This document shows, one piece after another, positions 3,050 through 18,171 of a stretch of DNA of 64,000 nt. Numbering within the stretch: position 1 is the stretch's first letter; the number at the start of each line of letters is the position of its first letter. The notes beneath the pieces were generated by a model that was given only the letters and a program-made list of their open reading frames with translations, ran no database searches and was not told the origin of the DNA. The stretch comes from a virus (taxonomy: Duplodnaviria > Caudoviricetes). Position numbers and translations under genes: made by a program. The stretch is from positions 1-64,000 of the IMG/VR virus record IMGVR_UViG_3300038428_000825. The stretch is one strand, 5' to 3'.

Positions 3050-3093
3050 ACCACAACCGAGTCCCAGCAGTTGATCAGGAAAGGCATTCTGGA

Positions 3094-3432
3094 ATGAAGA
3101 TCCAACCCATCAGCAACTACCTCATCATCAAGCTCGATCCGGCCGATGAGAACATCGGCAACAGCAAGTTGATTGCACCGGGCCAGCTCAATGAGGCCTA
3201 CAACGTCCCCAAGCGGATGGGCACCGTCCGTGCAGTTGGCCGTGGTCTCGTCACTGCCGGCGGCGAGATCATCCCTCCGCAGTTGACGTCCGGCGATCGC
3301 GTCTACGTCCTGCAGACCAAGGTCGAGATCACCGTCGAGTACGATGGCGAAGACTGCCTCGTCCTGTCTGACGAGTCGCACGTCATCGGCATCATCACCG
3401 AGGAGTCTTCACTGATTCTGGGGGGCAAGTAA
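3094..3432 (+). CDS. groES: Co-chaperonin GroES (Cpn10) family protein
   Basis: MKIQPISNYLIIK...GTVRAVGRG...GDRV...VEYDGEDCLVLSDESHVIGII follows the Cpn10 pattern. Confidence 0.85.
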   Translation: MKIQPISNYLIIKLDPADENIGNSKLIAPGQLNEAYNVPKRMGTVRAVGRGLVTAGGEIIPPQLTSGDRVYVLQTKVEITVEYDGEDCLVLSDESHVIGIITEESSLILGGK

Positions 3433-3442
3433 TGCCTCCCTT

Positions 3443-3967: not shown

Positions 3968-3984
3968 CCGTTCATTCTGGGCAC

Positions 3985-4269
3985 ATGGATGCCCAGAAAG
4001 AAGCCTATAAGCTCCTCAAGGAACATGGCGAGCAGATCAGGCACAACAAGCATGAGGCCTGGCGTGTCAACGGCCACCTCATCACCATCACCAAAACCAA
4101 AACCGATGACCGCGGCTGGCTGAACAAGCTCTGCGAGATCCGCCGTTGTCTAAAGATGCCGGCGGAAGAATCCTTCCGCCAGGCTCGGTGCAACGGAAAG
4201 GGCCGGTTCAGCGATGCTCCGGTGTCACAGCACTCTGTCAGTTGTGCTGGTCCGGCCGCGACGAGGTAA
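3985..4269 (+). CDS. HicA-like (dsRBD-fold) protein
   Basis: LLKEHGEQIRHNKHEAWRVNGHLITITKTKTDDRGWLN resembles the HicA-like pattern (conserved His, T-x-[ST]-D-x-R-x-x-x-N). Confidence 0.5.
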   Translation: MDAQKEAYKLLKEHGEQIRHNKHEAWRVNGHLITITKTKTDDRGWLNKLCEIRRCLKMPAEESFRQARCNGKGRFSDAPVSQHSVSCAGPAATR

Positions 4270-4374
4270 GCCAAATGCTGACTGACATCTCTCTCAACAA
4301 GATCGATCTCTTCGATACCACCGAACTCGACGCCGAGTTCAATGCCCACAGAGCCAAGAAGGAGCAACAACCCA

Positions 4375-4797
4375 ATGCCACTTCGCAAGAACCAACCCAA
4401 GAAAGCCACGGCGAAGGCCAAGCCGGCGCCGGTGAAACCGACGGCGAAAACTGAGCCCGCGGCGGCACCCGCAGTCGTAGCACCGCAGGCACCCAAGTTT
4501 ACTGCCGGCGATCTCGTACGGAAGGCCCTCCAGCTGCGCCAGCAGCATACCCTGAACGCTGCTGCAGCCACAGGCGAAGCCCTTGGAGCGCCGAAGGGTC
4601 CCAAGCCGACGATCGTCGAGTTCAAGGTGACCCTCAGCGATGGCACTGTGCTCCACGCCACAGGCAAGCACGCCGACGTCATGGTGCGCTTCAGCAACGA
4701 GTGCCAGGAGATCTGCCAGACCCAAGGCTTGGCTGCCTACAATGGGCCGCCCCTGACTCACTACACCGCCGAGGAGTGGGCGGCGAGGAACGCATAA
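4375..4797 (+). CDS. Hypothetical protein with a Lys/Ala/Pro-rich N-terminus
   Basis: AAGGAG upstream; MPLRKNQPKKATAKAKPAP... Confidence 0.65.
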   Translation: MPLRKNQPKKATAKAKPAPVKPTAKTEPAAAPAVVAPQAPKFTAGDLVRKALQLRQQHTLNAAAATGEALGAPKGPKPTIVEFKVTLSDGTVLHATGKHADVMVRFSNECQEICQTQGLAAYNGPPLTHYTAEEWAARNA

Positions 4798-4843
4798 ACC
4801 CTCATGTCAAACTCCGTTAGCAAGGCAGTTTAGGGATTGTCCG

Positions 4844-5677
4844 TCACTCGATAGTGATGTCAAAGAGTTCCCGCACAGGCACATAGGCGCGTCCAGTCTC
4901 ACCAGCGCGTCTGGTCTTTCGATCGAAAACTTCCACGAGACTGAGATTATGAGTAAATGTATCGCGAAGATCCGTGCCTGAAAGGCAGATTATTCGAGTT
5001 TTTTCACCGAGCCTGAAAGCCGTCAGGCCATCCTCACTAAAGCCAGAGTTGCTTACAAACAAACCCCGCGTCCAATCCGCTTTAGTTCGTACTGTTCCGG
5101 CGAAAGATTGAAGTTCACGATTACCGATCGGCGGTTCCTGCCACTTGGCTTCCACCAGGTAAGTGTTGGCATTAAGCTCGAAACTGCCGTCTATCTGTTC
5201 GCCAACCAACCGAAAAGACTTTCGCGGTGACAGTCCGAAAACTGCAAACAACGCGTCGAGAAAGCCTTCAAATGCAAATCCACGCGCTTGTGGTGGAAGT
5301 TTCTCAAGTTCGGTAAGGCGCGTGGCAAGTCGCTCGTAAAGTGTAGGCATGACTGCCATATTGAGACCATTTTCAGTGAGCCACCACAGCATGTTCGGGT
5401 AGCTCCGCGCAATGGTGTCAAAATAGTCTCCGGGGCAACCGAAAACATAGTTTCCTCGTGCAAGTACAGTCTCGGCAAGGACGTCCGACAAAGATTCGAC
5501 CGGAATAGGCACGTTGGAGACTTCGGCAATCCGTTCGACTAGCTCATGGTTCGTACTCTCGCCTTTCATTGAAAGAGATGCAAAGTTGTCTTCAATCAAC
5601 TTGGCGAATGTAGATTCATCAATCGAGTTGTCGTAGTTACTGAAGCGTTCCCAGAGGTGAATTCTCATCATATCCAT
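4844..5677 (-). CDS. Mrr-like (type IV) PD-(D/E)xK restriction endonuclease domain protein
   Basis: C-terminal RGFAFE...GEQIDGSF...YLVEAKW...GLFVSNSGFS pattern of the Mrr catalytic domain; strand and codon usage differ from the backbone. Confidence 0.8.
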   Translation of the reverse strand: MDMMRIHLWERFSNYDNSIDESTFAKLIEDNFASLSMKGESTNHELVERIAEVSNVPIPVESLSDVLAETVLARGNYVFGCPGDYFDTIARSYPNMLWWLTENGLNMAVMPTLYERLATRLTELEKLPPQARGFAFEGFLDALFAVFGLSPRKSFRLVGEQIDGSFELNANTYLVEAKWQEPPIGNRELQSFAGTVRTKADWTRGLFVSNSGFSEDGLTAFRLGEKTRIICLSGTDLRDTFTHNLSLVEVFDRKTRRAGETGRAYVPVRELFDITIE

Positions 5678-5802
5678 TCGGTTTTGTCAGTTGTCATTCG
5701 CTCAAAAATGATAGCCGCTCGCTTAAATCCACAGCAATAGTATGAGGCATCGCTAGCGACAAACGCCGATTGCGCCAGAATGGATTCTGGAATATCGCCA
5801 TA

Positions 5803-5984
5803 TCGCCAAAGCTCCGCCGATCAGCTTCCGCGGAATTCTGGGTTTACGCCAACAGCCCTGTTGACTCTTCCAGATGTTTAGATGGAGCTTAAAGGTGATC
5901 TGCATCACTCCGTGGGCTTGCCAAACTGGATCATCTGGAGACTAACCGACCGGCTACGTTCATGGGAAGGCGATTTGTTGTAAA
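5803..5984. repeat. ~185-bp inter-cargo repeat, copy A
   Basis: Highly similar to 17890-18079, which carries an extra 8 bp. Confidence 0.9.
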
Positions 5985-6013
5985 CGCAACATACCGACTG
6001 CTTCACCCCGATG

Positions 6014-9000
6014 TCAGATACGATCAAGCCAAGCCATGACTTCATCAGGAAGCGGCGTGCCGAGACAGAAGCGCATCTCTTTGAGCAGGCGGCGCAAACC
6101 GGGAAAGGACCTCTCGGTTGACTCAACCTGCTGTCTCGCGTACGACGGTCGTACGCTGAACTGGAATCCAGAACGATCACAGGCCCGTTCCCAGTACCGA
6201 ATGAAGAACGGAGCCGCTACTTCACGAATGATGGCTTGGTATGAACGGAAGCCCTTCTCCATTTCGCGGACGAGCCAGATTTGTGCATACAGCGACTCGC
6301 GAAGCGGGGCGCGAAGGATTGTCCCAATCATGTAGACAAAAGTGCACAGGTACTCCGCTCTCGCTGCCGAATCGACGCTCCACCGATGCAACTCCTCCCA
6401 ATTCGCATCACCCTGGAGAGAGACTAGGAGCGTCGGAATGTACGGTTCCGCTGAAGGGTATGCAGCAGGTATGGTTTCGAGCTGTTGGATGGCATCCTCG
6501 ATCACCGTTTCATTGATGGGTGAGACCGCGCTATCAAGTTTGAGGAGCGCGAGTTTCAACGTTGAAGAGATCACGGGAAGCAGCAGAACCGATAATCTTG
6601 CCTGAGGAGTTAGGTTCGCCTCCAGCATGCTCCGGACGGTTGAGAGAGCTTCACCGGCCTGACCAAGAGAATCGACATGAGCCTGCGTCGGCAGTTCGAT
6701 GGTCGCCATTGCAATTGCGATTTCGGCGACGCGCCGAAAATCGTTCCGCATAAGACTGTCCGCGAGACCCATCCATTGAGAGGCGCGGACCGCAGGCAGG
6801 GCATCCCGATGAATCTCGGCATATTCCATTCCTTTGAGAGCCCACCTCGCCGCCGATGCCGAATCTCCAATGCCCTCGGCATACATCGCCAGCCGGAGGC
6901 AGACATATGGCAGTTGAGTGGAGCGAAAGGCACCCGGGGCCTCGCTGCTGCTGCCGAGGAACAGTCCCTGCGTCGGCTCGACATGTCCAGCTTGAGGTCG
7001 TCCGTTCAGAGCGACGCCACTGTAATAGGCGGCTACGCCGAAAACCCGGGCAAACATCCCTTTCCATGTATCCGCAGGGGATTCGGTCTCGAGGCTCTTT
7101 GAAACCGCTTCCTCCAACGCCCGAAAGGCCTCGGCCCGTTGGTTGTTGTTCCACAGCGCCATCGAGTGCTCCGCCAAAGCTTCAATCAAGGAGGTGTCTA
7201 TCAACCCGGTGTTCCGGCAAAGCTCGACCGCCGCGCCGGTGAGGTCCGCTGCCCGGGTGCGGTCTGTCGGACCGCAGATTTCGGCAAGCGTGATTAGAAC
7301 ATTTCTGCGCCACAGGCTCTGCCGGTAGGAGTTGCAGGCGAGGGCTTGCTCAAGCCAGCGCGCCCCCTCGGCCGATCTGCCGGCGTAATGCAATTGCCTA
7401 CCGGTGACCTCAGCGATCAGGAAGGCGCAGTCCTCGTCAGGCAGCCTGCTTACCGTTGCCTGAGCCAAGTCCAGTGCCGCGGCGACCTGATGTTCCCACT
7501 CTGCCAGGATGATAATTCGATTGCGGATCGCTGCAGCTTCGAGAAGCGGGTACGGAATCGCTTGCGCAACCTCTTCGATCTTTGCAAGCACTGCCTTCGC
7601 GTGATCCCAATCGCGTTCTGCCTCCGGCTTGTCGTATTCGCGTCGCCAGACCCCATCGCAGAGAACCGTAATGTTGTCCTCGGCAAGATCGGACGAGTTG
7701 AGCGTTTCAAGCTGCGCCGGCGTGTATTGGGACACTGTCTCGATCCAGGAGTAGACATCCTCGTCGGACCGGCTGCTCACCGCCGTTATCCACAACACTC
7801 CTTCTAGGGGATACTCCCGACGCGGCAGCGGAGCGCCGCCGGTCGGAAACTCGGAGATGTTGAACTGGTTGATAGCGGGTACAAGAAATCTATTTGCGAG
7901 CGCAGCATTCTTGCGAGCCATGTGAATGGCGACGTGTCCCGCAGCCATCGCTACGCCCCATCCCGTCGAACCGGACTCTTCGATAAGCGCATCGAGCTGA
8001 CCAACCAGCCTATCGATTTGGGCACCCTGGCGATCGGTAACGACCAACTGCAAGGCTTTCAAGTAGAGCTGGAGGTTCAAATCCCCGCCTGGAGGCAATG
8101 GATAGGTGGTCCAGAACTGGATGAATCCGAACCCCTCGTCTAGAGGCTCGTCCTGGATGCTGATCTCGGCGAGTGCCTGAATCAGGACAATATAGGCGTG
8201 GTTAACCGAGCCGGAAAGAGTGAAGTGATTCACGCAGATGAGAACATCCGCGGGCTCCAGGACTTTTTTGTCCAGCAAATTCCGTCCCAGTACGAAGTGG
8301 ACACCTCGAAACGTCTTCGGATCCAGCGAAGAGCCTAGCTTCGCGCTAATAAGTGGTGAACGAAGGTATCTATCCGAACCCAGGGGCTGCAGCCAAATTC
8401 CGGAAGCGCGCTGCACTTTCTCGCCAGGAAGCGATATCGGGCGCGGAACGCGAGCAACCCGTGCGACTTCTTCGAGTGAGAAAGCGCCGACGGCTTGACT
8501 GAGACGAATCAGGAGTTCTCGTTCCGCATCATCGGGAACCATCGTCTGGAGAAGCTGGCCGACATCCGCACGAACTCCCTCGGCAAACTCACCCTTCAGA
8601 AGGGACTCCAAATGCTCTGATGTGAAGCCCCACGATTGGTCTGCCAAGTAGCGAACCGCGGCGGCCACCAGAATGGGAAGACCTTCGGAGATCGCCACAA
8701 TCAGGTCCAGAATTGCATCGGTCGTCAGCCGCTGCGGCGCGCCCAATAGGCCGAACAGTTCGCTGACGTCACTTCTGGTGAATCGAGGAGCCTCTACATG
8801 CACGAAACCAAGTCTCTGCTCGAAGGCTGATGGGAGCGTGTGATAGGTCGAGAAGAGAAGTTTTGCACCCGCGTGGCGGAAGGCCTCTGCCAGTGCTTCA
8901 AGCCGCGCCGCCAGCTCCCCGCCAGGTGGAACAACAGGCAGATCGTCAATGACCAGCAGTGAACCTCGAAAAGCTTCCGCTACAGCCGCAGCCCATACAT

Positions 9001-10393
9001 TCGAAGGGGTACCTCTTCGCAAGCCCGTTTGAGAAGCGAGTAGGAGGTCGAGCGACGCCCTGGCCTGAACTTCGCCGGCCGAGCGTGGGATATTGAGCCA
9101 ATGGGATTTGCCCGTGTGCCGCTGGACGATCAACTTCAATAACTGGGTTTTTCCGGAGCCCAGTTCTCCGCGTAGAACCACGATCCCGCCCGCTTGTAGC
9201 TGCTCGCTAATCGAATCAACCAAAGCCTTTCGCGAGAGGCAGGGATTGACCAACTCCGGCGCATCGGTTGAGATCGACATCAATCCGATGGCGAAGCCGG
9301 CGTCCTGGCCAAGGCTTTGACTCAGGACAGCCAGATTCTGTCGGATCACCTGAGCCTCGCTCGCCTGTTGGTTGATGGTCCTAAGGTTCTGGATCAGCTG
9401 ATTTAAGATTCCCTTCGGCTCGGAGCTACGCCTCGCCAAATCGAAGACCGCATTTATGGCGGCAACGTCGTCCTCGAGTCCTTCAACTCGCACACCGTGA
9501 TCTTCCAGCTCGCGCTCAACAGTGGTGAGACGCCGCTCGATCTCTTGGAGCTGAGCTTCGAAGCTTCGGACCGCGATGATCGCCTGTTGAGAAACCGACG
9601 GCGTACTCAACTCAGCAGTCAGATCTTCAGCCGCGAGCGTCTTCCTTCCAGCCCGGCACAGGAGGAGGAAAACATAGGCAAAGAGGTGCTCATAAAGCCG
9701 GTCGATTTCCTCAGCGGATGGCGAGTCGTCTCGCCCGGCAAGCGCTTCCTTGATATCGGCCATTACGTTCAGGTAGTCGCCGTGCCCAGAGCTCCACTCC
9801 AATCGCCGGATGAGATTCAGCAATGGACAGGTGTCTTCGGCGTCCACCATACCGCGCATGCAATCCCACGATGACTTCGATACTTTGCCCGGTTGGGAGC
9901 AGGACCGCAGAAATGTGGCGATCAAGCTGACGGCTGCGGCCTCTTCTGCCTCTCCATATTTGTGGAGACGGATCGCCTCCCAGGTTCCGATTGCGGAGCC
10001 GGAACCGATCCAGTCCCGCTCAACTCCCAGTTCAGCGGTAGTCACATAACGGAATGACAGGCTCCACTGGGGATTCAGCTTCTGATGTTCGCAAAAGCGG
10101 GCAATCGCCTGGAGAGCCTCTCCGCTCTTCAGGGTTAAATTGGCAGATCGTACTTTGAGCTGACCAAGACGCCGAACCTCCACCAACTCAACCGGAGGGT
10201 CGCCGGACGCTACGGCCTGCCCGATCACATCACCGACCGCCTTCCCGACGACGTCAATATCCTCCCCACATTCGAGCTCAAGATGTTCATTTTCAGAAAG
10301 ATTCAGCCACTGCAACACCGTCAGGTTCGCCTGAAAGACGAATCCTCGGATAGTCGCAAAAGCGTCGTTTCCCGGATTGGCTCGGAAATGCAT
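6014..10393 (-). CDS. Nuclease-NTPase-helical repeat protein (Avs/STAND-like anti-phage protein)
   Basis: N-terminal Cap4/DUF4297-type motif (A..RGFVFQ...ECGEDID...QLK), coiled coil, Walker A GELGSGKT, Walker B LLVIDD, long TPR-like helical C-terminus; start may be 10393 or 10405. Confidence 0.7.
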   Translation of the reverse strand: MHFRANPGNDAFATIRGFVFQANLTVLQWLNLSENEHLELECGEDIDVVGKAVGDVIGQAVASGDPPVELVEVRRLGQLKVRSANLTLKSGEALQAIARFCEHQKLNPQWSLSFRYVTTAELGVERDWIGSGSAIGTWEAIRLHKYGEAEEAAAVSLIATFLRSCSQPGKVSKSSWDCMRGMVDAEDTCPLLNLIRRLEWSSGHGDYLNVMADIKEALAGRDDSPSAEEIDRLYEHLFAYVFLLLCRAGRKTLAAEDLTAELSTPSVSQQAIIAVRSFEAQLQEIERRLTTVERELEDHGVRVEGLEDDVAAINAVFDLARRSSEPKGILNQLIQNLRTINQQASEAQVIRQNLAVLSQSLGQDAGFAIGLMSISTDAPELVNPCLSRKALVDSISEQLQAGGIVVLRGELGSGKTQLLKLIVQRHTGKSHWLNIPRSAGEVQARASLDLLLASQTGLRRGTPSNVWAAAVAEAFRGSLLVIDDLPVVPPGGELAARLEALAEAFRHAGAKLLFSTYHTLPSAFEQRLGFVHVEAPRFTRSDVSELFGLLGAPQRLTTDAILDLIVAISEGLPILVAAAVRYLADQSWGFTSEHLESLLKGEFAEGVRADVGQLLQTMVPDDAERELLIRLSQAVGAFSLEEVARVARVPRPISLPGEKVQRASGIWLQPLGSDRYLRSPLISAKLGSSLDPKTFRGVHFVLGRNLLDKKVLEPADVLICVNHFTLSGSVNHAYIVLIQALAEISIQDEPLDEGFGFIQFWTTYPLPPGGDLNLQLYLKALQLVVTDRQGAQIDRLVGQLDALIEESGSTGWGVAMAAGHVAIHMARKNAALANRFLVPAINQFNISEFPTGGAPLPRREYPLEGVLWITAVSSRSDEDVYSWIETVSQYTPAQLETLNSSDLAEDNITVLCDGVWRREYDKPEAERDWDHAKAVLAKIEEVAQAIPYPLLEAAAIRNRIIILAEWEHQVAAALDLAQATVSRLPDEDCAFLIAEVTGRQLHYAGRSAEGARWLEQALACNSYRQSLWRRNVLITLAEICGPTDRTRAADLTGAAVELCRNTGLIDTSLIEALAEHSMALWNNNQRAEAFRALEEAVSKSLETESPADTWKGMFARVFGVAAYYSGVALNGRPQAGHVEPTQGLFLGSSSEAPGAFRSTQLPYVCLRLAMYAEGIGDSASAARWALKGMEYAEIHRDALPAVRASQWMGLADSLMRNDFRRVAEIAIAMATIELPTQAHVDSLGQAGEALSTVRSMLEANLTPQARLSVLLLPVISSTLKLALLKLDSAVSPINETVIEDAIQQLETIPAAYPSAEPYIPTLLVSLQGDANWEELHRWSVDSAARAEYLCTFVYMIGTILRAPLRESLYAQIWLVREMEKGFRSYQAIIREVAAPFFIRYWERACDRSGFQFSVRPSYARQQVESTERSFPGLRRLLKEMRFCLGTPLPDEVMAWLDRI

Positions 10394-10652
10394 TTTGGAA
10401 ACCATCCTAAAAAGGATAACCGTTCGAAGAACGACTAAGCTCCTCCTGCAATACATTCCTCATAAAGGTCAGGATCCAGTGTCAGCGCAACAGCCCCGAG
10501 CAGGTCTCCAGCACTTCATGAATACGACCAGATCAAGTCCGTCATCCCCTGGCCGGTGACTCTCGGCTTCTGTTTGGAAATCGGGAGCACTGTAATTCTC
10601 AACTGACGCGAACCGTAGCGCTCACTGAAAGATCTATCGACCTCCCGTTACA

Positions 10653-10737
10653 GGTTCCGGGCGTCTTGTCTGCACCTCGGAAGCAGACCCACTATCCAAA
10701 TCCCTGGAACCCCGCCTTCGGACGGGGTTCTTTTTTT
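10653..10737 (+). terminator. Intrinsic terminator preceded by a competing upstream helix (structured RNA / attenuator-like)
   Basis: GAACCCCG-ccttcgga-CGGGGTTC plus T7 (10707-10737); GGTTCCGGG (10653-10661) can pair with CCTGGAACC (10703-10711); internal GTCTGC/GCAGAC hairpin. Confidence 0.7.
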
Positions 10738-10911
10738 GCCGGGGAGGGAAGGGGCCGGCGGAACTGGGGATGGGTGGGCGGATGCTCAATGCTTGAGGTC
10801 TACTCACAGATCTGTCCAGTAGGGTGAACACCTTAGATTGACCTCTATTTTGACCCGAAAACCCTTTGAACCTTTGACACCTGCCGGTCGAGGTGCGATG
10901 CTTCTTAATAG

Positions 10912-11014
10912 TGAGTTTCACTCAATTGTTAATTGTAAGTAATACTTACTATTGAGTTTACACTTAAAAGAGAGTAGCTCTTATAGAGCTACTCTTATAT
11001 TGAGTATTACTCAA
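10912..11014. repeat. AT-rich array of five adjacent related palindromes (candidate replication origin or operator array)
   Basis: TGAGT-ttc-ACTCA; GTAAGTA-a-TACTTAC; TTGAGT-ttac-ACTTAA; AGAGTAGCTCT-tat-AGAGCTACTCT; TTGAGTA-t-TACTCAA. Confidence 0.8.
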
Positions 11015-11117
11015 AGCAGCAGGGTTGAACCGAGAATCGCCACGCCCTCCCTTTGGTAGATCGCTCTCGAATCGCATTCTCAACATGAGGCCGGAAACCG
11101 GCCACAGGAGAATTCAT

Positions 11118-11465
11118 TTGAGCGCCCACCACACCACAGCCATTGACGTCGCCAAGCTGCTTGCAGCTGACAACGTGTCCACAGCGGACCGCATCTGGGC
11201 AGTTGACTTTGAAGTCAAGATGCCGGCTGAGCTGATCACCGAAGAAGATTTGAAGTGCCCCGATTGTGGCGAGGTCCATGACCCCAGCCTGGAAAACGCC
11301 CGGGTGGTTGCCGACACGATCATCGTTCTCGGCGGTCCTGATGCCCAGGTGTCACTGGATCGGGTTCGTGAGTACGTCCTCAACCGGGAACTTGAAGCTG
11401 GCCTGCATATGACCGACTTCGTTCTCACTGGCGTCAAGCTGCTCGCTGCTGCGGAGGTGGTGTAG
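11118..11465 (+). CDS. Hypothetical protein with a CPDC...H motif
   Basis: AGGAG RBS before TTG 11118 (alternative ATG 11085). Confidence 0.65.
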   Translation: MSAHHTTAIDVAKLLAADNVSTADRIWAVDFEVKMPAELITEEDLKCPDCGEVHDPSLENARVVADTIIVLGGPDAQVSLDRVREYVLNRELEAGLHMTDFVLTGVKLLAAAEVV

Positions 11466-11926
11466 TGCTCGATAACTGGGATAATCCCGCCATCACCCAG
11501 CAGGGTGTTCATGCTGTGGAGACGCCGGCAGACCTGTTCAGCGATCCGCCGTTCGGTCATCTTTTTGCAGAGCTGACCGATCTCGCTGCGGCAACGGCCG
11601 CCGGCTTCCGAACCGTCCTGGTGCCACCGGACACGCCGCTGTTCTGCTTCTACTGCCACGATACCGAGGCGCCGGAGTACCGCCTGCGTCGCAAGGCCGG
11701 CAAGTACGTCGCACTCTGCCACCGGCCTGGAACCATCGAAGGCTGCTGGGATCGTGATGTGGCTCCCATGTGCGAGTACAAGAACCAAGAAGCTATCCAG
11801 TGCGACCAGGTTGCCGAGTGGGTGGTTGCCTTCGGAAAGGACATGCTGATGCGAACCCACCGCTGTCTGATCCACGTTCCGCCGGCGCTTTCCGATGTTT
11901 CCGAGCACCGGGTCTTTCCTATCTAG
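11465..11926 (+). CDS. Cys-rich putative zinc-binding protein
   Basis: CFYC, CH..C, C..C, C..H clusters; start overlaps the upstream stop. Confidence 0.65.
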   Translation: MLDNWDNPAITQQGVHAVETPADLFSDPPFGHLFAELTDLAAATAAGFRTVLVPPDTPLFCFYCHDTEAPEYRLRRKAGKYVALCHRPGTIEGCWDRDVAPMCEYKNQEAIQCDQVAEWVVAFGKDMLMRTHRCLIHVPPALSDVSEHRVFPI

Positions 11927-12064
11927 GGTTGCTCTCTGTACGCCAGAGGCCCTTTCTCAGTTGTATCTCTCCCGTCTTTGTTCCCCATTCCAAGCCTCAG
12001 TACAAGACGGAAGGAATGGCGCGCAAGCGCAGACCTCCCGTTCCACAACCCTTAGGAAGAATCC

Positions 12065-12547
12065 GTGCCCCTCGATCAAACCGGCTATCGCAACACCTTC
12101 CCGCTCACCAAAGTCCTTGACCGCCTCTTTCTGGGCGGCTTCAAAGACGCTGAGGATCTCAGGTCCGGCAACCCACACAACATCACCCACATCTGCAACT
12201 GCACCACTGAACCGCTCACGATTCCGTCCAGACTCGTCACCAGCATCATCCAGATGGACCAGCTCGACGGCCACGACTGGGATGTTCAGAAGCTCTACTC
12301 GGCTGTCGATTGGATTCGCCGCGCGCTGCTCGGCGGAGGCACCGTTCTGGCCCACTGCCACGCCGGCATCAGCCGGTCTCCGGTGCTGGTTGCGACCTAT
12401 CTCTACACCTGCGGCTTCGACTTCGACCGCGCGCTCGACCGCATCAAGGCCCAGCGCCCGATCGTGCAGCCGGCACCTGTCGTCCTGGTCAGTGCCAAGC
12501 GGGCCTTTGGTATCTCCCCGCTTGCCATCCACACTACAGGCAGATGA
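12065..12547 (+). CDS. Dual-specificity protein phosphatase (CX5R family)
   Basis: LFLGG at the N-terminus; VLAHCHAGISRSPVLVATYL active-site loop. Confidence 0.9.
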   Translation: MPLDQTGYRNTFPLTKVLDRLFLGGFKDAEDLRSGNPHNITHICNCTTEPLTIPSRLVTSIIQMDQLDGHDWDVQKLYSAVDWIRRALLGGGTVLAHCHAGISRSPVLVATYLYTCGFDFDRALDRIKAQRPIVQPAPVVLVSAKRAFGISPLAIHTTGR

Positions 12548-12570
12548 ACCCGTCTCGAAGAAAGGCACCA

Positions 12571-12921
12571 ATGCGTAAAACACTGCTTTCAATTCTGTTC
12601 CTTCTGCTGCTGGCTGTTCCGGCGATCGCGCAGAAACCTGCACCCGCGGCCTCCGCGCCGGCTCAACCTTCGATGGCGCCAGTCAAGCCCAGCGAGATCG
12701 AGGATCTCAAGATCGAGAACCTCAAGCTCAAGCTGAGCCTTTACACCCAGCACAAGGTGGACCTGCAGCGCGAGGAAGACTCGGTCAATCAGGATGGCGA
12801 GAAGCTGGCTAAGCAGATCATCGCTGATCATCCAGGCCACCACCTGGATTTCAAGACTCTGACGATCGTTTCCGATGCCCCGGCCGAAGCTGCCAAGCCC
12901 GCTGAGACGCCAAAGAAGTAA
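12571..12921 (+). CDS. Exported coiled-coil protein with a signal peptide
   Basis: MRKTLLSILFLLLLAVPAIA-Q signal peptide followed by a heptad region. Confidence 0.7.
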   Translation: MRKTLLSILFLLLLAVPAIAQKPAPAASAPAQPSMAPVKPSEIEDLKIENLKLKLSLYTQHKVDLQREEDSVNQDGEKLAKQIIADHPGHHLDFKTLTIVSDAPAEAAKPAETPKK

Positions 12922-13008
12922 TCTGCACTGCCCGACTCGCCGGTTTCCGCCGGCGAGTTCCTCTCTGTAACAGCCTTCCCGTCAATGAACTAACTGCCCG
13001 CAATAATC

Positions 13009-13018
13009 CCTATACTAG
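13009..13018 (+). promoter_or_regulatory. CCTATACTAG putative phage late promoter; other copies at 21368, 29959, 41118, 43168
   Basis: Identical 10-mer containing TATACT upstream of five transcription units; four copies extend as ...TAGACA. Confidence 0.75.
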
Positions 13019-13028
13019 GGAGGTATGT

Positions 13029-13748
13029 ATGGCAACTCCTGGTCTTATTCCGATTCCGGAAGACCTGGCCCTTTTCCCCGTCCCAACCGAGAATGTGAAT
13101 GGCCTGCTCGCCACCAGCGAGGATCTCGGCCTCACTGTTGAGGAAAAGCAGGAACTCGACAACTACCAGTCTGCGCTACGGATTCTCGGCCCGGCAGCCG
13201 GAGCTGTGCTCATGTGTCCCGGCAACCAGGAGAATGTAGCGGACGAGGACAAGTGTCCGTACTCGTCGAAGTGTCCCTTGCTCCGGATGCACAAGGCCCT
13301 CGCGGACAAGATGTGTCCCGTTGAACGCCTGATTGTCGAAGAGCGTTTCAACGCCTGGTGCAGAGAGCTTTCTACCGACCCGGTCCTGGCGAAGGAATCT
13401 GACCGGGTCGCTATTTCCGACCTCTGTTGGATCGACCTGCAGATGCAGCGTTCGTTGCACATCCTGAGCAAAGGAGATGAAGCTCGCCTGACGGTGACCA
13501 ATCCCAAGGATGTTCACCCGGAGACATTCCTTCCTATCTCCTGGGAGAAAGTCATCCATCCGAACGTCGAGCTTTTGGTAACACTGCAGACCCAGCGCAG
13601 AATGATCTTGAAAGATTGGATGCTGACTCCTGAGCAGAAGTGGAAGAGGGAGAAGGCGGAAGGCAAGGGGTCTGGCAAGGACATAGCCAGCAAGCAATCA
13701 GCGCGGGCCGACAAGCTCAGAGCGATCAAGTCAAGCAACGAGGATTAG
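13029..13748 (+). CDS. Hypothetical protein, possibly terminase small subunit
   Basis: GGAGG RBS, CCTATACTAG motif upstream, Cys cluster, C-terminal WMLTPEQK helix reminiscent of small terminases; function is inference only. Confidence 0.4.
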   Translation: MATPGLIPIPEDLALFPVPTENVNGLLATSEDLGLTVEEKQELDNYQSALRILGPAAGAVLMCPGNQENVADEDKCPYSSKCPLLRMHKALADKMCPVERLIVEERFNAWCRELSTDPVLAKESDRVAISDLCWIDLQMQRSLHILSKGDEARLTVTNPKDVHPETFLPISWEKVIHPNVELLVTLQTQRRMILKDWMLTPEQKWKREKAEGKGSGKDIASKQSARADKLRAIKSSNED

Positions 13749-13839
13749 ACGGATCCCCACACGGAGATGGACCCAAATCCACCCGTACTCGCCGGGCCAA
13801 CTGAAAGGTTGGCCTGGTGAATCCCCCCAAGAGGTAAGA

Positions 13840-15456
13840 ATGTCAGGACGCGGCAGGCCGAGGGCAAGCATTACCAGCGAGCAGGTTGCAGCCGAACTCA
13901 AGGCTGGGTTGAAAGTCAAACAGATCGCCAAGAAGTACAACTGTTCTCCTGACACAGTCGAGCGCAGGGCGAACCCTACAGGCAGGACAGACAAGCGTGT
14001 AGGGCATCATGGCGCTTCCGCCGCAAAGCCTTCCCCTTCTCCTGTCGACATTGGAACCTTCAAGACCACCGCCGAGGCAGAAGCTGAGTATCTGCCGAAA
14101 TCGGATGCGCAGCCCACCACTTCCGTCAATGGACGGCAGTGGCTGCTCTCCAAGGTGGTGGGCAACGACATCCGCCAACGGTACTGGTACAACAAGGACC
14201 AGGATCGCTACATCACGGTGATCCGCGGTGTGGGCGAGCCGATCGTGACCTCCGGCGCCGAGCACCGCGCCATCTGTGAAGCCTATTCCAACATGGTTGG
14301 GAAGAGCTCCACCCTGAATGAGATTGCGCGCGACTTCGGCATGCCCAGAGCCTGGCTGATCCAGTATCTGCACATCCACGGCATCACCCACGACAAGGAA
14401 CCCTTCTCAGCCGAAGAGCTGATTGAGCGGACCACCGACGACTTGGTCGAAGATCTCTACAACATGAAGCGCCGTGCTGTCTTCACTGCCATGAACGAGA
14501 AGTCCTGGAAGGAGATCAAGAAACGGGCTGCCTTGTGGGATAACTTTGAGCATTCGGTGTCACGGGTTGTCGACGACTGGGCCAACCGCTTCGTTCCAGA
14601 CTACCGTCCGCAGTTGGTGAACATCATACGTGCGTCGAGGCCGTTCTCGGCCGTGTTCCTGCCGATGGACTTCCATTATGGAAAGGGATCCTGGTTCGAC
14701 GAAGCCGGCCACAGCTACACACGGCAGAGTTGTAAGGAGCTTCTGAGGTTCCACACCGAGAACATCCTGAACAGTCTGGTGGCGCGTGGCCGCCCCACTC
14801 GCATCGTCGTTCCCTTCGGTTCCGACTGGTTCCATGTGGACAATCAGTTCGGCAGCACCACGCTCGGCACGCCTCAGGATCTGGATGGCACACCCGAGAT
14901 GATCCTGAGCGAGGGCCTCGAATTCAAGGTCGAGTTCTGCGACTGGCTTCGTCAGGTAGCACCGATCGTGCTTCTTCCTTGTCCTGGCAACCACGATCAC
15001 CACTCCGACATTGCCTTGATGAAGTACCTGCAAGCCTGGTACCGCAATGACGATGATGTGGAGATCATCGACAGCCTGATGAGTCGCAACTACTACGTCT
15101 GCGACAACACGCTGATCGGCGCCACCCACGGCAACGACGTCAACTTGGCCGACCTGCCCACCTTGATGGCCAATGAGCGCCGCCAGGAATGGGCCCAGAC
15201 CGCTCACCAGATCTTCGTCACCGGCCACACTCACGGTGAGGTGCTTGAGGACGACGGCGGCATCATGCACTACACCTGCCCGTCGCTGTCGGCGGCAGAT
15301 CGATGGCATGAAGGCCGCGGCTACAACCTCAACCGCCAGGCGATGGCTGCGATCGTTCTCGATGAAGAGGAAGGTCCCACCAACTTCGTCGTCTCAGCGC
15401 GCCAGAACCGGACCACCGTCGGCTTCAACATCAAGAACCGGTCGAGGGCGGCCTAA
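13840..15456 (+). CDS. HTH-containing calcineurin-like metallophosphoesterase/nuclease
   Basis: N-terminal HTH (VKQIAKKYNCSPDTVERR); motifs DFHYG, GSDWFH, GNHD, THG, GHTH. Confidence 0.85.
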   Translation: MSGRGRPRASITSEQVAAELKAGLKVKQIAKKYNCSPDTVERRANPTGRTDKRVGHHGASAAKPSPSPVDIGTFKTTAEAEAEYLPKSDAQPTTSVNGRQWLLSKVVGNDIRQRYWYNKDQDRYITVIRGVGEPIVTSGAEHRAICEAYSNMVGKSSTLNEIARDFGMPRAWLIQYLHIHGITHDKEPFSAEELIERTTDDLVEDLYNMKRRAVFTAMNEKSWKEIKKRAALWDNFEHSVSRVVDDWANRFVPDYRPQLVNIIRASRPFSAVFLPMDFHYGKGSWFDEAGHSYTRQSCKELLRFHTENILNSLVARGRPTRIVVPFGSDWFHVDNQFGSTTLGTPQDLDGTPEMILSEGLEFKVEFCDWLRQVAPIVLLPCPGNHDHHSDIALMKYLQAWYRNDDDVEIIDSLMSRNYYVCDNTLIGATHGNDVNLADLPTLMANERRQEWAQTAHQIFVTGHTHGEVLEDDGGIMHYTCPSLSAADRWHEGRGYNLNRQAMAAIVLDEEEGPTNFVVSARQNRTTVGFNIKNRSRAA

Positions 15457-15816
15457 CCCACAACAGTTAGGAACACCAACCGACAGCGCGCCTACCACCG
15501 GCGCGCTGTTGTCGCATTAGAGGTAGGACAGGACCATGAAACCCTTCTCCGCACAGATCAAGAAGCCCACACAAAAGGCCGGACTGGCCGCGATGCCCAC
15601 CCGTGTCATCAAGACAGGCGCAAGCCGGTCCGTGGTCAGCGGAGTCGCGCGTTCAGCCAGGACCGCCGGCGCCCGCAGGCTCCGCGGGGTTTGATTCCTA
15701 TACTGATGCTGTTGGCGAATTCCGGCTGTCTCACTGAAGTCGCCTGAAACGGGATTTTGCAGGGGCTTCAGGAGAGCATCCAGGGTCAAGGCTCGATGAG
15801 GGCTTCAGCGGTTTAC

Positions 15817-15853
15817 CGTAAACCCAGAATCCATTCTGGCGCAATGGGCGTTT
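15817..15853 (-). repeat. Inverted partial copy of the island-1 repeat region
   Basis: 15824-15853 is 29/30 identical to the reverse complement of 5761-5790; contains palindrome CCAGAAT-nn-ATTCTGG. Confidence 0.8.
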
Positions 15854-15987
15854 GCCGTTCCTGATCGTCGCCGTCAACGCTTGCTACGTCTCGGATTGTA
15901 TGAAGCTAGGAGTTCGTCGATCATCTTAGCTAAATGATAGGCGAGCGGATCAGCGATCAGCTAGCAGAACAGGAAATACGAACAACT

Positions 15988-17787
15988 TCAGGATGACTGA
16001 CGCCGATGGATAGCTATTGGAGTGAGAACAAACAGGCTATGTAGCACACGATTCGAAGTATATTCATTGAAGCCTTGGGGTGGGATGAGCCCATGCGCAA
16101 GGTTATTGCGCAAGTTTGCTCCTCTCCGATCAATATAAAGCAATGTGAGATACCGCCAGACGTCCTCGAGTAATACTTCTCGTATTCTAGGCTCATCGAG
16201 AATATTGTTCATGCTTTTCACGTCAATGATACCGGGGGATCTAGGTACGCTCTTCACTGGCGGAACACCGATCAGCGGAAGAAGATTTCGAAGCACCCCC
16301 TCTATTTGCGGCACCAGTAGATGAATTGCCTTCATATGGTCTCGTCCCAAATAAGCCGTGAGTCCTTCATGCACAATCTGCCTGCGAGTCGTGTCAAACA
16401 CTGGGCATTCGAACAGGAACGACGTGAGTTCTTCTGCGCTCGGTACAAACTGTTCTCTAATCCTCTCCATAGCCAAGTAGAGTAAGGGATCTGAAAAACT
16501 CATCAGCTGATTCAATTGATAGTAGAGGTGCCCTTCGAGGTCATCTTCAACGCTCCCCAAATGTGCCTGAGGGCGTCCATCTGCGCTTACGATCTCGATG
16601 GGCAGCATGCTTGCCAATGGCGCGATGCCCTTCTTTTTCTCAATCAGACTCTGTGCCTCACTCACCTTGGGAGTGAAATATGCAGCAACCTTTCGAAGGG
16701 TCACCGCGAGGCTGTCATCCGCCACTAAAGATGCGAGCAGAGCATCGATATCGTCCTTCTTAAATTCAACTGGGAAGGAATAGGTCTTCATCTCACCAGG
16801 AATCTTGGCATAGAGATCTTCCAGCTTATTCCTGATTATCTCCGCGTCTGCCTTCATTCCTTCTTGTTCATATCGCTGTGCGACAGGTTCAAGCCAAGCA
16901 GTTGCGAGCGTCGCCCCAGCGCCTTCCGCTATCATTTGGAACGCAGCTCCGATCGATTTAAGCACCCGCTCGGCCTGTCCCGCATCGCCCGACTTCTTGT
17001 AGTGTCGAACTAGCCTTTCCCCAACGGCCTGAGCATTGAATGGGTCGAATTCACCACCCTCATCTCTAGTTAATAGCCTCATTAACATATCTTCGAGGCC
17101 AGAGACCAGAGAACCCAGCTGTTTCTCAGTTACGAGGTCTGGGTGTTCATACAGCAAGTCAAACAGTGTGATCCAGACTCCAACGAACTTTGGAGACAGA
17201 TTTGCATCGTAGAACCTGAGAATCGAGTCAACCGCCGACCTTGTCCGGTTCTCATCACGAACGCTCATGGCTAGATCGAGCGCCCTGACAAGCCAATGCG
17301 TTGCAAAGATTGGAATAGTGAATAATCTGTGATCCACTGCCGAGAGGTATGCGTCAGAAGCCACCCTCGCCATTTGGTGATTTGGCTTCGCACCACAGAT
17401 CATTTTCGCTAGGTCCCATGCAGTATCCGCGTAGCGTGCTTTCATTAAAGGATTACTAGCTTCTTCCGCCCGCCGCTCCCAGTGGGCTATGGTCTCCGCG
17501 TCAAGCGCTGAGATGTCCGGGGTTACGACGGTAGGTTTTCCTTCTCCGCCGGGAAAGATTGCCATCGGACCAAAGTGAGTTCCCCAAAAGCTTTCTCTCG
17601 GTTTCTGATATCCGATCAAAAAGAAGACCGAGTGCTCCGCTAGGTAGGCTTTCCACTCCTCTTCTTCGAGATCGCCTCGCTTTGATCGTTCTTTTTGAAG
17701 GCATTCCGCGATCTCGGTCTCGCTATGAGGGTCTATCTTCATGTCAAACGCTGCAAGAACGGCGCTAATCCATTCTGGAATCGTCAT
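15988..17787 (-). CDS. DUF4209-like protein with a C-terminal HEPN (RxxxxH) domain, putative defence RNase
   Basis: AIHLLVPQIEGVLR...NLRNNLAHG; large helical N-terminus; AAGAG RBS. Confidence 0.75.
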   Translation of the reverse strand: MTIPEWISAVLAAFDMKIDPHSETEIAECLQKERSKRGDLEEEEWKAYLAEHSVFFLIGYQKPRESFWGTHFGPMAIFPGGEGKPTVVTPDISALDAETIAHWERRAEEASNPLMKARYADTAWDLAKMICGAKPNHQMARVASDAYLSAVDHRLFTIPIFATHWLVRALDLAMSVRDENRTRSAVDSILRFYDANLSPKFVGVWITLFDLLYEHPDLVTEKQLGSLVSGLEDMLMRLLTRDEGGEFDPFNAQAVGERLVRHYKKSGDAGQAERVLKSIGAAFQMIAEGAGATLATAWLEPVAQRYEQEGMKADAEIIRNKLEDLYAKIPGEMKTYSFPVEFKKDDIDALLASLVADDSLAVTLRKVAAYFTPKVSEAQSLIEKKKGIAPLASMLPIEIVSADGRPQAHLGSVEDDLEGHLYYQLNQLMSFSDPLLYLAMERIREQFVPSAEELTSFLFECPVFDTTRRQIVHEGLTAYLGRDHMKAIHLLVPQIEGVLRNLLPLIGVPPVKSVPRSPGIIDVKSMNNILDEPRIREVLLEDVWRYLTLLYIDRRGANLRNNLAHGLIPPQGFNEYTSNRVLHSLFVLTPIAIHRRQSS

Positions 17788-17889
17788 CTCTTAAGGACCT
17801 GCCTTTCTGGAGCGGAATTACGCTCAGAATTCTATTCGACCTCGGTGATTTCTGACGTGCTTAATCACGGCGGATACATCCTCACCAAG

Positions 17890-18079
17890 TCGCCAAGGCT
17901 CCGCCGATCAGCTTCCGCGGAATCCTGGGTTTACGCAAACAGCCCTGAGTCCCTGTTGACTCTTCCAGATGTTTAGATGGAGATTAAAGGTGATCTGCAT
18001 CATATTGTGGGCGTGCCAAGCTGGATCATCTGGAGACTAACCGGCCGGCTCCGTTCATGGGAAGGCGATTTGGCGTAAA
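17890..18079. repeat. ~185-bp inter-cargo repeat, copy B
   Basis: Aligns with 5803-5984. Confidence 0.9.
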
Positions 18080-18171
18080 GCGAGAGACACTCCAGGCGAC
18101 ATTGGTTTTACCGGTAGTAATCTTGAGCCGAAACACCACAATTAGCTGGTTCAAACAGACCCTCCGCCTCG

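Follow-up and report, generated by a model that had tools for sequence, protein, structure and literature searches.

Short non-coding modules border single, often defence-type accessory genes in two hotspots of an Acidobacteriaceae myophage

The two defence-type islands of the window, i.e., the first 64,000 bp of a 98,883-bp record of a temperate myophage whose host is an uncultured member of the Acidobacteriaceae, are accessory-gene hotspots. These pre-existing variable slots are empty in two close relatives (G003 and G004), and in at least eight others they are filled with different cargo that is often defence-like. Three short modules occur at gene borders in the islands, designated RE, LE, and pal, and belong to a low-copy family found in phages, in a conjugative element, and in the chromosomes of a single genus of the Acidobacteriaceae. 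We give about even chances to the reading that they represent portable junctions at which mobile elements exchange and stack defence genes one at a time, for which homologous exchange is more likely than a site-specific mechanism.

Both islands share the layout described in the initial annotation: on the minus strand, a gene for a large NTPase is followed by a non-coding repeat of about 185 bp and a second gene, so that in each island the repeat separates two co-oriented, unrelated genes. The paired proteins are indeed unrelated, with best BLASTP E-values of 0.13 (P-loop only) and 4.2. The repeat occurs at 5795-5984 (copy A) and 17882-18079 (copy B) with approximately 90% identity (89% over 183 columns in blastn) and, as reported before, 8 additional bp in copy B. 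It consists of a 5' block (5795-5860 vs. 17882-17947, 66 nt, 91%) and a 3' block (5856-5984 vs. 17951-18079, 129 nt, 91%). No further match was found in the whole 98,883-bp record, in 17 related viral records, or in phage and plasmid collections.

The repeat is a composite of abutted RE and LE rather than one element, with the third module, pal, beside copy A. On the plus strand, RE copy A (5801-5858, ~58 nt) ends 3' in AACAGCCC, has copies of 80-100% identity in the host genus, and is abutted by LE copy A (5858-5984, ~127 nt), which is situated 3' of the minus-strand NTPase gene and is 91% identical to copy B. In case of copy B, RE (17888-17945, of which 55 nt match copies in G289:C3 and G214:C11 at 100% identity) and LE (17954-18079) are separated by the 8 extra bases at 17946-17953. 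The pal module (5757-5812, plus strand) comprises a perfect 16-nt palindrome at about 5775-5790 and has an inverted copy at 15802-15857. The inverted recurrence of a palindrome-containing segment had been noticed before and holds for 31 nt (5760-5790 and 15824-15854, 97%), within a wider match of 56 nt (79%). At 15780-15857 (plus strand), a degenerate 5' half of RE is fused to the inverted pal, an arrangement in common with the prophage of G580. None of the three modules was found to be coding, to form a structured RNA or an attC-like hairpin, or to be a high-copy repeat.

In a search of 401 host-genus genomes for RE and/or pal (E ≤ 1e-3, two candidates scored per genome), low-copy matches were obtained in 64 genomes, and the five fully scored genomes contain two to seven module matches each. 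RE and pal border variable genes, which are often of the defence type, both in a conjugative element and in chromosomes, and the orientation of the two modules relative to the neighbouring gene varies. In two related conjugative elements homology ends at the last base of pal (8908 of locus L111) and resumes at the first base of RE (10184 of L111); the intervening cargo differs, with a PDC-S11/DUF4268 gene in one element and a gene for an unknown 363-aa protein in the second. Homologues of pal are located upstream of PDC-S11 and PDC-S60-like genes in host genomes. The complete RE-LE joint was found in only two instances, both in this phage; outside of it, LE occurs in G761 (contig C1, 92% over 117 nt), partially in G427, and with its first ~10 nt after RE in two loci. 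In the host loci, 11 of 28 module-adjacent proteins have a PADLOC match (E ≤ 1e-5), as do 7 of the 19 cargo-encoded proteins from the hotspots of relatives, both being counts without background control.

Hotspot 1 (4798-10702) is located between the stop of a phage gene (4342-4797) and a terminator-like site (10706-10731). It is missing in G003 and G004, where a junction of ~15 bp is left, and is replaced by ~1.8 kb of different DNA in G001 and G002. Its minus-strand cargo comprises gene 1b (4844-5677, 277 aa) with an Mrr_cat restriction-endonuclease domain (Pfam PF04471, E 1.6e-7) and no match in PADLOC, and gene 1a (6014-10456, 1480 aa) with a DUF4297/LmuA-like N-terminus (PADLOC LmuA, E 1.8e-8; DUF4297, E 5e-4) and a NACHT-like P-loop NTPase (Pfam NACHT, E 7e-4, under the family cut-off), an architecture that appears Avs-like. 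The right frame of the hotspot (10614-10702, plus strand) is common to relatives with other cargo, and homology to G001 resumes at 10614.

Hotspot 2 (15705-21367) is a transposon-like insertion with two cargo genes. It is missing in G003 and G004, and other cargo occurs in G001, G002, G005, G006, G007, G012, G013, G018 (a host MAG), and G580; two variants (L012 and L097) also contain plus-strand cargo genes. The 8-bp sequence CCTATACT, of which the left copy (15697-15704, plus strand) forms the first half of a phage promoter-like motif, is repeated at 21368-21375 (plus strand) and is present as a single copy at the empty site of G003 and G004. The left end CTGTTGGCGAAT (15709-15720, plus strand) is the perfect reverse complement of 21353-21364, and this 12-mer occurs nowhere else in the record. 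The inverted repeats are offset by 2-4 nt inward from the duplication. The inverted ends suspected in the initial annotation were thus found here, and together with the duplication at the empty site they constitute a transposon-like footprint.

Both cargo genes of hotspot 2 are on the minus strand. Gene 2b (15988-17787, 599 aa), previously regarded as a nuclease, encodes a DUF4209/DUF7380 protein and PADLOC candidate (PDC-S39, E 2.3e-40) for which neither Pfam nor PADLOC revealed a nuclease domain. Gene 2a (18172-21147, 991 aa) encodes a TrlF-family AAA-like (ABC-type) ATPase (NCBIfam NF045780, 695 bits vs. a cut-off of 350) with a Ppl-like C-terminus (PADLOC Ppl, E 1.3e-30). Upstream of this cargo, AACAGCCC at 21252-21259 (plus strand) marks the border to a further module, mini (21257-21364, plus strand), and homology with relatives carrying other cargo resumes at 21252-21257. 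Mini ends in the right inverted end and represents the conserved right frame of the hotspot, with 88-94% identity in all occupied relatives. Beyond the window it was found in 6 of the 401 genomes, i.e., in full length only in the prophages of G018 and G580 and as partial matches of 30-50 nt in four others; in G289:C9 a mini-like stretch follows an RE.

Assembled contigs from peat metagenomes, each joint being contained in one contig, depart from the phage sequence at module edges. At least 8 (run X3) and at least 19 (run X5) contigs leave at 17886-17891, the start of RE copy B, and nine and seven depart at the 3' edges of RE after 5858 and 17945, respectively; bins with RE reach 5-10 times the depth of the adjacent cargo. 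For hotspot 1, one contig joins 4850 to 10613, and one contains 4788-5722, then departs and is joined to 10613. For hotspot 2, the empty form is present in one contig (15628 joined to 21368), and one contig joins 15857 to 17888, so that gene 2b is skipped or replaced in it.

Since the same 50-130 bp are found beside unrelated genes in many mobile elements, recombination there would swap or add one gene per event. The modules border accessory genes individually, many of which are of the defence type. We infer both the causal role of the modules in this exchange and the enzyme responsible: the most likely route would be short-homology recombination via the host RecA or a phage recombinase, with tandem stacks (NTPase-joint-Mrr and TrlF-joint-DUF4209) as the presumed outcome. 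Hotspot 2 itself was founded by a transposon-like insertion, with its inverted ends and 8-bp duplication as the footprint. Homologous recombination on common modules accounts for the observations no less well than a dedicated site. The reading as portable joints is weakened by the restriction of the complete joint to this phage, by the absence of the repeat from the 17 related viral records and the phage and plasmid collections, and by the varying orientation of RE and pal. Two further points argue against homologous exchange, namely that 58 nt at 80-100% identity are short for RecA-type exchange, and that the ends and the duplication of hotspot 2 point to a transposition-type event.

A possible, albeit doubtful, alternative is close to the originally proposed capture and stacking of end-bounded cassettes. 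A trans-acting site-specific recombinase or transposase would recognise ends of the type CTGTTGGCG.../...CGCCAACAG, with the crossover beside AACAG/CCC, and would produce head-to-tail single-gene cassettes, functionally like integron or pdif arrays at a different site. Besides the perfect 12-bp inverted repeat and the 8-bp target duplication that halves the promoter-like motif, this is favoured by the fact that the hotspot-2 end and the RE start have CTGTTGGCG, then AATTCCG, in common. Moreover, 25 of the 26 RE copies from hosts terminate in ACAG, with CCC next in 20 of these 25, and cargo is closed by ..ACAG right before mini in three different hotspot-2 variants and by ..CCAACAG right before the right frame in two other hotspot-1 cargos (G001 and one contig of run X2). 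The junction of copy B contains an 8-bp unit whose end is the second GGG, LE with the junction lies next to, and 130 nt upstream of, a gene for a 326-aa XerC/D-like tyrosine recombinase in G761, and one metagenome contig joins 17938 back to 15817. However, AACAG/CCC is not a clean end, because the sequence after AACAGCCC is semi-conserved in most copies, and ACAG is missing at the mini border in 3 of 6 hotspot-2 variants. The restriction of full-length mini to two prophages argues against such a system as well. No recombinase or transposase gene was found in the islands or next to them; the record has a single one, an integrase gene at its far end, and none of four tyrosine recombinases tested reached the integron-integrase cut-off. 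RNA and ssDNA folds yielded no significant hairpin (z -1.75 to +0.98), and the consensus fold (-1.9 kcal/mol) no attC-like structure. Outside of RE copies the 8-mer GGGCTGTT appears at approximately chance frequency in the host loci fetched, and no second copy of the 15-nt end (one mismatch allowed) flanks an element in five host genomes.

The initial idea is therefore partly supported: both islands are variable slots, hotspot 2 has inverted ends, and RE is a discrete unit beside variable, often defence-type, cargo in the conjugative element, in chromosomes, and in many metagenome contexts, rather than a stray piece of a known IS or gene devoid of such a link, but neither a recombinase or transposase accompanying the modules nor a hairpin was found. 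CAACAG-CC-CTGTTG is present at 5850-5863, but its CTGTTG half is not conserved within the family, coming after AACAGCC in just 2 of the 26 RE copies from hosts. AACAGCCC does occur on the plus strand at 5851, 10489, 17938, and 21252, and additionally at 52483 on the minus strand. These five matches compare with 2.1 expected (at least five were reached by 6 of 100 shuffles), and the four plus-strand sites are not independent because two of them fall within the repeat. The site at 10489-10496, 33 nt upstream of the minus-strand NTPase start codon, has no similarity to RE beyond AACAGCCC.

That the modules are nothing more than regulatory sequences (promoter, operator, or insulator pieces) common to accessory genes of this genus and co-transferred with neighbouring genes, the two phage copies reflecting common descent of the intergenic regions and playing no part in mobility, we consider unlikely. 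In gene-strand orientation, pal with its operator-like perfect palindrome is situated 100-150 nt upstream of the starts of the Mrr gene, the PDC-S11 gene of the conjugative element, and the PDC-S60-like gene, and most occupied hotspot-2 variants examined have mini, as its reverse complement, upstream of a minus-strand cargo operon. Yet 80-100% identity over 58 nt across species, beside unrelated genes and in either orientation, would be unexpected for such DNA, and it is precisely at the module edges that the two conjugative elements lose their backbone homology. In addition, a consensus scan detected neither a sigma-70-like promoter nor an intrinsic terminator in the shared part of the repeat (8 sites in the region vs. 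6.9 expected). It is highly improbable that RE is a functional site of the conjugative element (an origin of transfer or an attachment site by the relaxase gene) of which phage and chromosome copies are fragments or mobilisable mimics. In two host loci (L099/L111 and L138; three with the duplicate L100), RE begins right on the stop codon of a gene for an RlxS-like relaxase and overlaps this codon, and the same element codes for a coupling protein, an SSB, and an integrase, but most RE copies are not beside a relaxase gene, and inverted repeats of the kind usual for such sites were not observed.

Among known systems, integron arrays consist of co-oriented tandem single genes with a non-coding unit after each and a conserved leader upstream of the first. 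The islands resemble them in their co-oriented tandem genes, unrelated cargo, non-coding units, and conserved upstream leader, but lack an integron integrase and an attC-like folded structure, and their core motifs do not fit. Mobile insertion cassettes and MITE-like elements are non-autonomous transposons that carry passenger genes. Taken in its entirety, hotspot 2 is similar to these with respect to inverted ends, a 7-8-bp target duplication, and passenger genes without a transposase. It differs in that no autonomous partner with these ends was found in the five host genomes, the right-end module was found in full length only in two prophages and in part in four other genomes, the inverted repeats lie 2-4 nt inside the duplication, and the inner joints have no paired inverted ends.

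Hotspots of P2-like prophages and P4-like satellites are likewise fixed slots between conserved genes with different anti-phage genes in each relative, for which exchange near the cos site was suggested (bioRxiv 10.1101/2021.01.21.427644). The words "repeat" and "flanked" are absent from the preprint text searched, whereas common internal joints occur here, together with inverted ends and a duplicated target. A precedent for module-mediated shuffling is given by the promoter-early stem-loops (PeSLs) of T4-type myophages, which are mobile regulatory cassettes (PMC2839356, PMC4122927). PeSLs, too, are short and conserved non-coding modules that separate non-essential genes in variable myophage regions; they border insertions, deletions, and replacements between close relatives, and were proposed to mediate modular shuffling by recombination. 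As described there, a PeSL combines a strong promoter with a terminator stem-loop and occurs many times per genome, whereas neither a promoter nor a terminator or stable hairpin was detected here and the phage contains only two copies; the modules described here, in contrast, also extend to a conjugative element and to host chromosomes.

Both accessory islands of the phage, hotspot 1 (4798-10702) and hotspot 2 (15705-21367), are true variable slots, which are empty or differently filled among its relatives. In the relatives G003 and G004, the regions 1-4797 and 10703-15704 are collinear with the window and lie ~15 bp apart, and at hotspot 2 position 15704 joins straight to 21368. G001 and G002 carry other DNA at both places (~1.8 kb and ~3.1 kb), and further cargo states of hotspot 2 were observed in G005, G006, G007, G012, G013, the host MAG G018, and the prophage-bearing genome G580. 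The cargo of the relatives includes Sel1, PEGA, and radical-SAM proteins according to Pfam. Matches to PADLOC defence-system models (E<=1e-5) were obtained for 7 out of 19 proteins, spread across five of seven scanned variant loci, the models being pVip-like, DrmC-like, type IV restriction, PDC-S32, UvrD/NERD, and PDC-M68A/HNH. Varying single genes thus occupy fixed slots between conserved phage genes, and with this often defence-type content both islands correspond to prophage-encoded defence hotspots. Hotspot 1 is situated between a stop codon on one side and the terminator of that gene on the other, without inverted ends or duplication. The protein of the conserved phage gene that separates both hotspots (13840-15456) is 538 aa long, carries an N-terminal helix-turn-helix, and also matches a calcineurin-like phosphoesterase/DNA repair exonuclease (phrog_704, E 4e-51).

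The IMG/VR record, of which the window is the first 64 kb, is classed as a provirus of 98,883 bp with a CheckV completeness of 46%. Terminase (23730-25844), portal (27354-30119), major head protein, tail sheath, and a large lytic tail protein are encoded in the window, followed downstream in the record by baseplate genes and, at its end, a tyrosine integrase. The terminase is 96% identical to one on a 3.26-Mb contig of an uncultured Acidobacteriaceae MAG. Due to these virion genes, the integrase, and the terminase match, the record is a temperate myophage of this family. A search with the portal protein yielded 41 related viral loci, many of them 91-96% identical. Two neighbouring genes (46039-46734 and 46771-47820) share the same PHROG match (phrog_9206, major head protein), and a further, separate head-protein match is located at 34939-36264. 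Past the window, a putative third accessory island (record 64644-69383; L050:1644-6383) separates the gene of the lytic tail protein from those of the baseplate and encodes an ADP-ribosylglycohydrolase (- strand) as well as McrC together with an EVE-domain McrB-like AAA_5 ATPase; no copies of the modules RE, LE, and pal described below were found in it by blastn.

The repeat of ~185 bp reported for both islands in the initial annotation is real. Positions 5795-5860 align with 17882-17947 and 5856-5984 with 17951-18079, at 91% identity in each block; copy B contains 8 additional bases between the blocks, and blastn across the repeat gives 89% over 183 columns. The whole record holds the repeat at two places only. 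Likewise, the palindrome-bearing 31-nt segment 5760-5790 has an inverted copy at 15824-15854 (97%, blastn). In the - strand order of hotspot 1, a gene for a 1480-aa DUF4297/LmuA-like and NACHT-like NTPase protein is followed by the repeat and the gene of a 277-aa Mrr_cat protein; in hotspot 2, a 991-aa TrlF-family ATPase (NCBIfam 695 bits, C-terminus Ppl-like), the repeat, and a 599-aa DUF4209 protein follow each other. Protein comparison showed the paired cargo proteins to be unrelated, as had been claimed, but the presumed second nuclease is actually the DUF4209 protein, PADLOC candidate PDC-S39, in which Pfam and PADLOC showed no nuclease domain. Three of the four cargo genes have PADLOC matches. 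Viral contigs yielded no close relative of either the DUF4209 or the Mrr protein, and no recombinase was found inside or adjoining the islands. The motif AACAGCCC, described as standing upstream of all four cargo genes, does occur on the + strand at 5851, 10489, 17938, and 21252, but a fifth site is located elsewhere, and five sites compare to 2.1 expected, with at least 5 in 6 out of 100 shuffles.

Hotspot 2 as a whole, in agreement with the inverted ends originally proposed, carries the transposon-like footprint of an insertion. The empty site reads ..GATTCCTATACT|AGACAGC.., and the left and right edges of the occupied site are ..CCTATACT-GATG-CTGTTGGCGAAT.. and ..ATTCGCCAACAG-AA-CCTATACT-AGACAGC.., respectively. 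Accordingly, an 8-bp direct duplication, CCTATACT, surrounds the hotspot and is present as one copy in G003 and G004. The ends form a perfect 12-bp inverted repeat (15709-15720 and 21353-21364), with no further copy of the 12-mer in the record; terminal inverted repeats and a target duplication were not seen at hotspot 1 or at the inner joints. Together with the duplication, these ends may be similar to those of the IS6 family, of which no transposase was seen. CCTATACT is the first half of a ~16-nt motif (..TTCCTATACTAGACAG..) with nine sites in the record, all on the + strand (window 13009, 15697, 21368, 29959, 41118, 43168, and 52978; record 69684 and 93383) and mostly 10-25 nt before + strand start codons. 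TATACT is rare apart from this motif (~48 expected vs 13 found). Judged by sequence, the motif is probably a phage-specific promoter-type signal. Since it is duplicated by half only, a target-site duplication fits better than recombination between motif copies.

The right end of hotspot 2, a 110-bp module termed mini (21257-21364), and at least the leftmost 8 nt are common to all occupied relatives, and thus one founding insertion with inverted ends and duplication, followed by cargo turnover, is the simplest history. Among the occupied variants examined, most have mini as reverse complement upstream of the hotspot-2 cargo, and in each island of the window the cargo is co-oriented. A search of 5 host genomes for a second element with the 15-nt end (at most one mismatch) returned the prophage's own site and scattered single matches. 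Among 401 genomes mini was found in 6, in full length in the prophages of G018 and G580 only and partially in 4 others.

Assembled contigs from four metagenomes, which demonstrate presence and not frequency and of which parts without cover were left out of the evidence, contain further arrangements. The joints 15628 to 21368 (empty), 4850 to 10613, and 15857 to 17888, with the DUF4209 segment skipped or replaced, are represented by one contig each, and in another contig 4788-5722 with the Mrr gene is present before it departs and joins 10613. In peat metagenomes, bins of the repeat's RE module reach 5-10x the depth of adjoining cargo; at least 8 contigs of run X3 and at least 19 of run X5 depart from the reference at 17886-17891, and 9 and 7 contigs depart after 5858 and 17945. 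Due to this excess in depth and the many departures, RE occurs in many differing contexts. In the same two peat runs, the phage backbone has a depth of ~60-160 and the window's island cargo of ~0-20; thus most such phages in these samples either have different cargo or lack it.

The repeat is a composite, and its modules recur elsewhere. These are RE (~58 nt; 5801-5858 and 17888-17945) and LE (~127 nt; 5858-5984 and 17954-18079); pal (5757-5812) adjoins RE of copy A. Searches of 401 genomes gave matches in 6 at the level of the host family and in 64 at that of the host genus (E<=1e-3), with two candidates scored per genome and most host genomes being MAGs with short contigs. The five genomes with every candidate scored contain 2-7 matches each, and therefore the modules are a low-copy family. 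REP, BIME, or RIME repeats, with tens to hundreds of copies per genome, were rejected on account of these numbers. Most matches concern pal (query 5-51) or RE (query 47-102/103); RE of copy B is 100% identical across 55 nt to copies in G289 and G214, and LE was found in G761 (92% over 117 nt) and partially in G427.

Of 26 host copies of RE, 25 end in ..ACAG, 20 of these with CCC next, and most then run into ~11 semi-conserved nt. A continuation like that of the phage, CTGTTGAC, is present in 2 only, so the palindrome at the repeat's junction is not a feature of the family. By reading, the starts of LE and mini resemble the ~11-nt stretch, and the RE end (CTGTTGGCG, then AATTCCG) is similar to that of mini and to the left end of hotspot 2. 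LE, mini, and RE hence look like diverged relatives in differing orders, as far as such resemblance goes. With RE copies discounted, the frequency of GGGCTGTT, considered as a general cassette mark in host loci, is close to that expected by chance.

Non-coding modules with exact borders are located at the edges of varying DNA in the phage, in a conjugative element, and in chromosomes. The clearest case outside the phage is the conjugative element, which encodes an integrase, a coupling protein, SSB, and an RlxS-like relaxase. Its two versions in G289 and G469 are ~83% identical, and their collinearity ends at the last base of pal and resumes at the first base of RE; in between, one version has a PDC-S11/DUF4268 gene and the other a 363-aa gene of no assigned family plus a second pal. 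A stretch of this element (PDC-S11 gene, RE, end of the relaxase gene) is identical in L099 (G289:C3) and L100 (G214:C11). As these are different species-representative genomes, the identity implies a recent transfer. In case of a chromosomal RE (L143), an empty-site comparison gave no readable borders: the neighbouring gene alone is kept in 142 of 151 genomes, and the flank is non-syntenic even in the closest relative.

Module copies adjoin genes for a Pycsar-type cyclase and a PDC-S01 ATPase, a PDC-M05A protein and a PifA-like KAP NTPase, a HipA kinase and a DUF4062 NTPase, a Fic protein and a mad3-like ATPase, a GajB-like helicase and a pPIWI-associated nuclease, and two tyrosine recombinases; some adjoin ordinary metabolic genes. 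With 11 out of 28 scanned neighbours matching PADLOC models (E<=1e-5), the association with defence is no more than suggestive. In L151 (10283-11520; G761:C1), LE and the junction motif are situated downstream of two small genes of no assigned function. The LE copy of G761 precedes by 130 nt the gene of a 326-aa XerC/D-like tyrosine recombinase, which is followed by a gene encoding a 2537-aa surface-repeat protein.

Several known identities were rejected. There were no Rfam matches in the window at the gathering score, and one weak, unrelated match in 10 host loci (E<=0.1). RNA folds were no better than shuffles (z -0.9 and -1.3), and the consensus fold of 26 copies reached -1.9 kcal/mol with one compensated pair. 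Single-stranded DNA folds of both strands of RE, pal plus RE, and mini (z -1.75 to +0.98) spoke against a hairpin site. A seemingly conserved 23-residue frame is interrupted by stops in 9 of 26 copies, and all six frames have stops in 6-24 of them and lack 3-base periodicity. No tRNA or tmRNA-derived attachment site is indicated, with zero tRNAs in the window and 31 loci. A lone Y1 transposase gene near RE in L122 (120 nt) belongs to a separate IS, and RE lacks the hairpins of an IS200-type end; this IS200-like element (L122:800-1455, G451:C202; ~650 bp) has the same GC-rich hairpin near each end, lies ~40 nt from the RE copy, and adjoins the pPIWI-associated nuclease gene. Neither the viral nor the genome collections contain exact 19-21-mers of LE, 16-18-mers of the junction hit 43 loci without extending, as chance matches of that pattern length do, and blastn of the repeat gave no match in the plasmid and phage collections.

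We infer that exchange takes place at the modules. In line with the proposal for the PeSLs of T4-type phages (PMC2839356, PMC4122927), the most likely route would be homologous exchange on the 58-127-nt modules. It is preferred because no recombinase travels with the modules, a hairpin or paired-arm site is absent, and module orders and orientations are mosaic. Possibly, a dedicated site-specific or transposition system moves the cassettes, to which the footprint of hotspot 2, the recurring ..ACAG|CCC border, the 8-bp unit of copy B, and the recombinase gene near LE in G761 point. It is tempting to think further of a new kind of gene-cassette system of the Acidobacteriaceae, in which a recombinase acting in trans would link defence genes one by one, head to tail, with a core beside GGG|CTGTT (AACAG|CCC); stacks would be built and reshuffled in phages, conjugative elements, and chromosomes, RE, LE, and mini would serve as recombination sites, and the enzyme would be a small XerC/D-like tyrosine recombinase as in G761 or an unrecognised transposase. 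We consider this unlikely. Pal in one orientation repeatedly precedes a cargo start codon by 100-150 nt, RE and pal are variably oriented to the adjoining gene, and a consensus scan for sigma-70-like promoters, as distinct from Acidobacterial or unusual types, and for intrinsic terminators detected none in the shared part; a purely regulatory role of the modules is unlikely. Still far less probable is a function as transfer origin, despite the copy beside the relaxase gene.

The free movement of single defence genes across phages, conjugative elements, and chromosomes is hardly explained past the term hotspots. Here, a single small group of non-coding modules, whose borders are exact to the base, flanks varying defence-type genes in three kinds of replicon, within one genus abundant in peat and soil. 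If the modules drive exchange, they offer a handle for new defence genes, i.e., whatever adjoins them, and a tractable model of how immune islands evolve cassette by cassette outside integrons. If they are mere passengers, they still mark a gene pool common to a temperate phage and host conjugative elements.

In the comparison with known systems, mobile insertion cassettes and integron arrays were taken as generally defined. The integron- or pdif-like array envisaged initially failed the defining tests of both. The integron integrase model has a cut-off of 265 bits, whereas four tyrosine recombinases (phage, conjugative element, G761, and L144) score 29-59 bits, and the single-strand hairpin that attC forms from an imperfect inverted repeat is lacking in RE, pal, and mini. 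Pdif modules have paired ~28-bp dif-like sites with two arms and a 6-bp spacer; by inspection copy A has the arrangement 6-2-6 and copy B 6-10-6, and the junction palindrome is missing from most family members. The subterminal hairpins of IS200/IS605 are likewise absent from RE, and the only Y1 transposase nearby is that of the separate IS in L122. Regarding non-autonomous transposons of the MIC/MITE type, hotspot 2 as a whole has the inverted repeat and target duplication, but neither a cognate autonomous element nor multiple copies with the same ends were found (5 host genomes; mini in 401). PeSLs are defined by a strong promoter and a terminator stem-loop, neither of which was detected in the shared part, but the modules resemble them in bordering indels and replacements among close phage relatives. 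Searches of an open-access library yielded no paper on such modules in Acidobacteria or on joints common to defence genes in phage hotspots. The closest known systems are PeSLs, the P2/P4 defence hotspots (10.1101/2021.01.21.427644), mobile insertion cassettes, and integron arrays, and we take the present case as a variant of the known, module-bounded shuffling of genes at hotspots of mobile elements.
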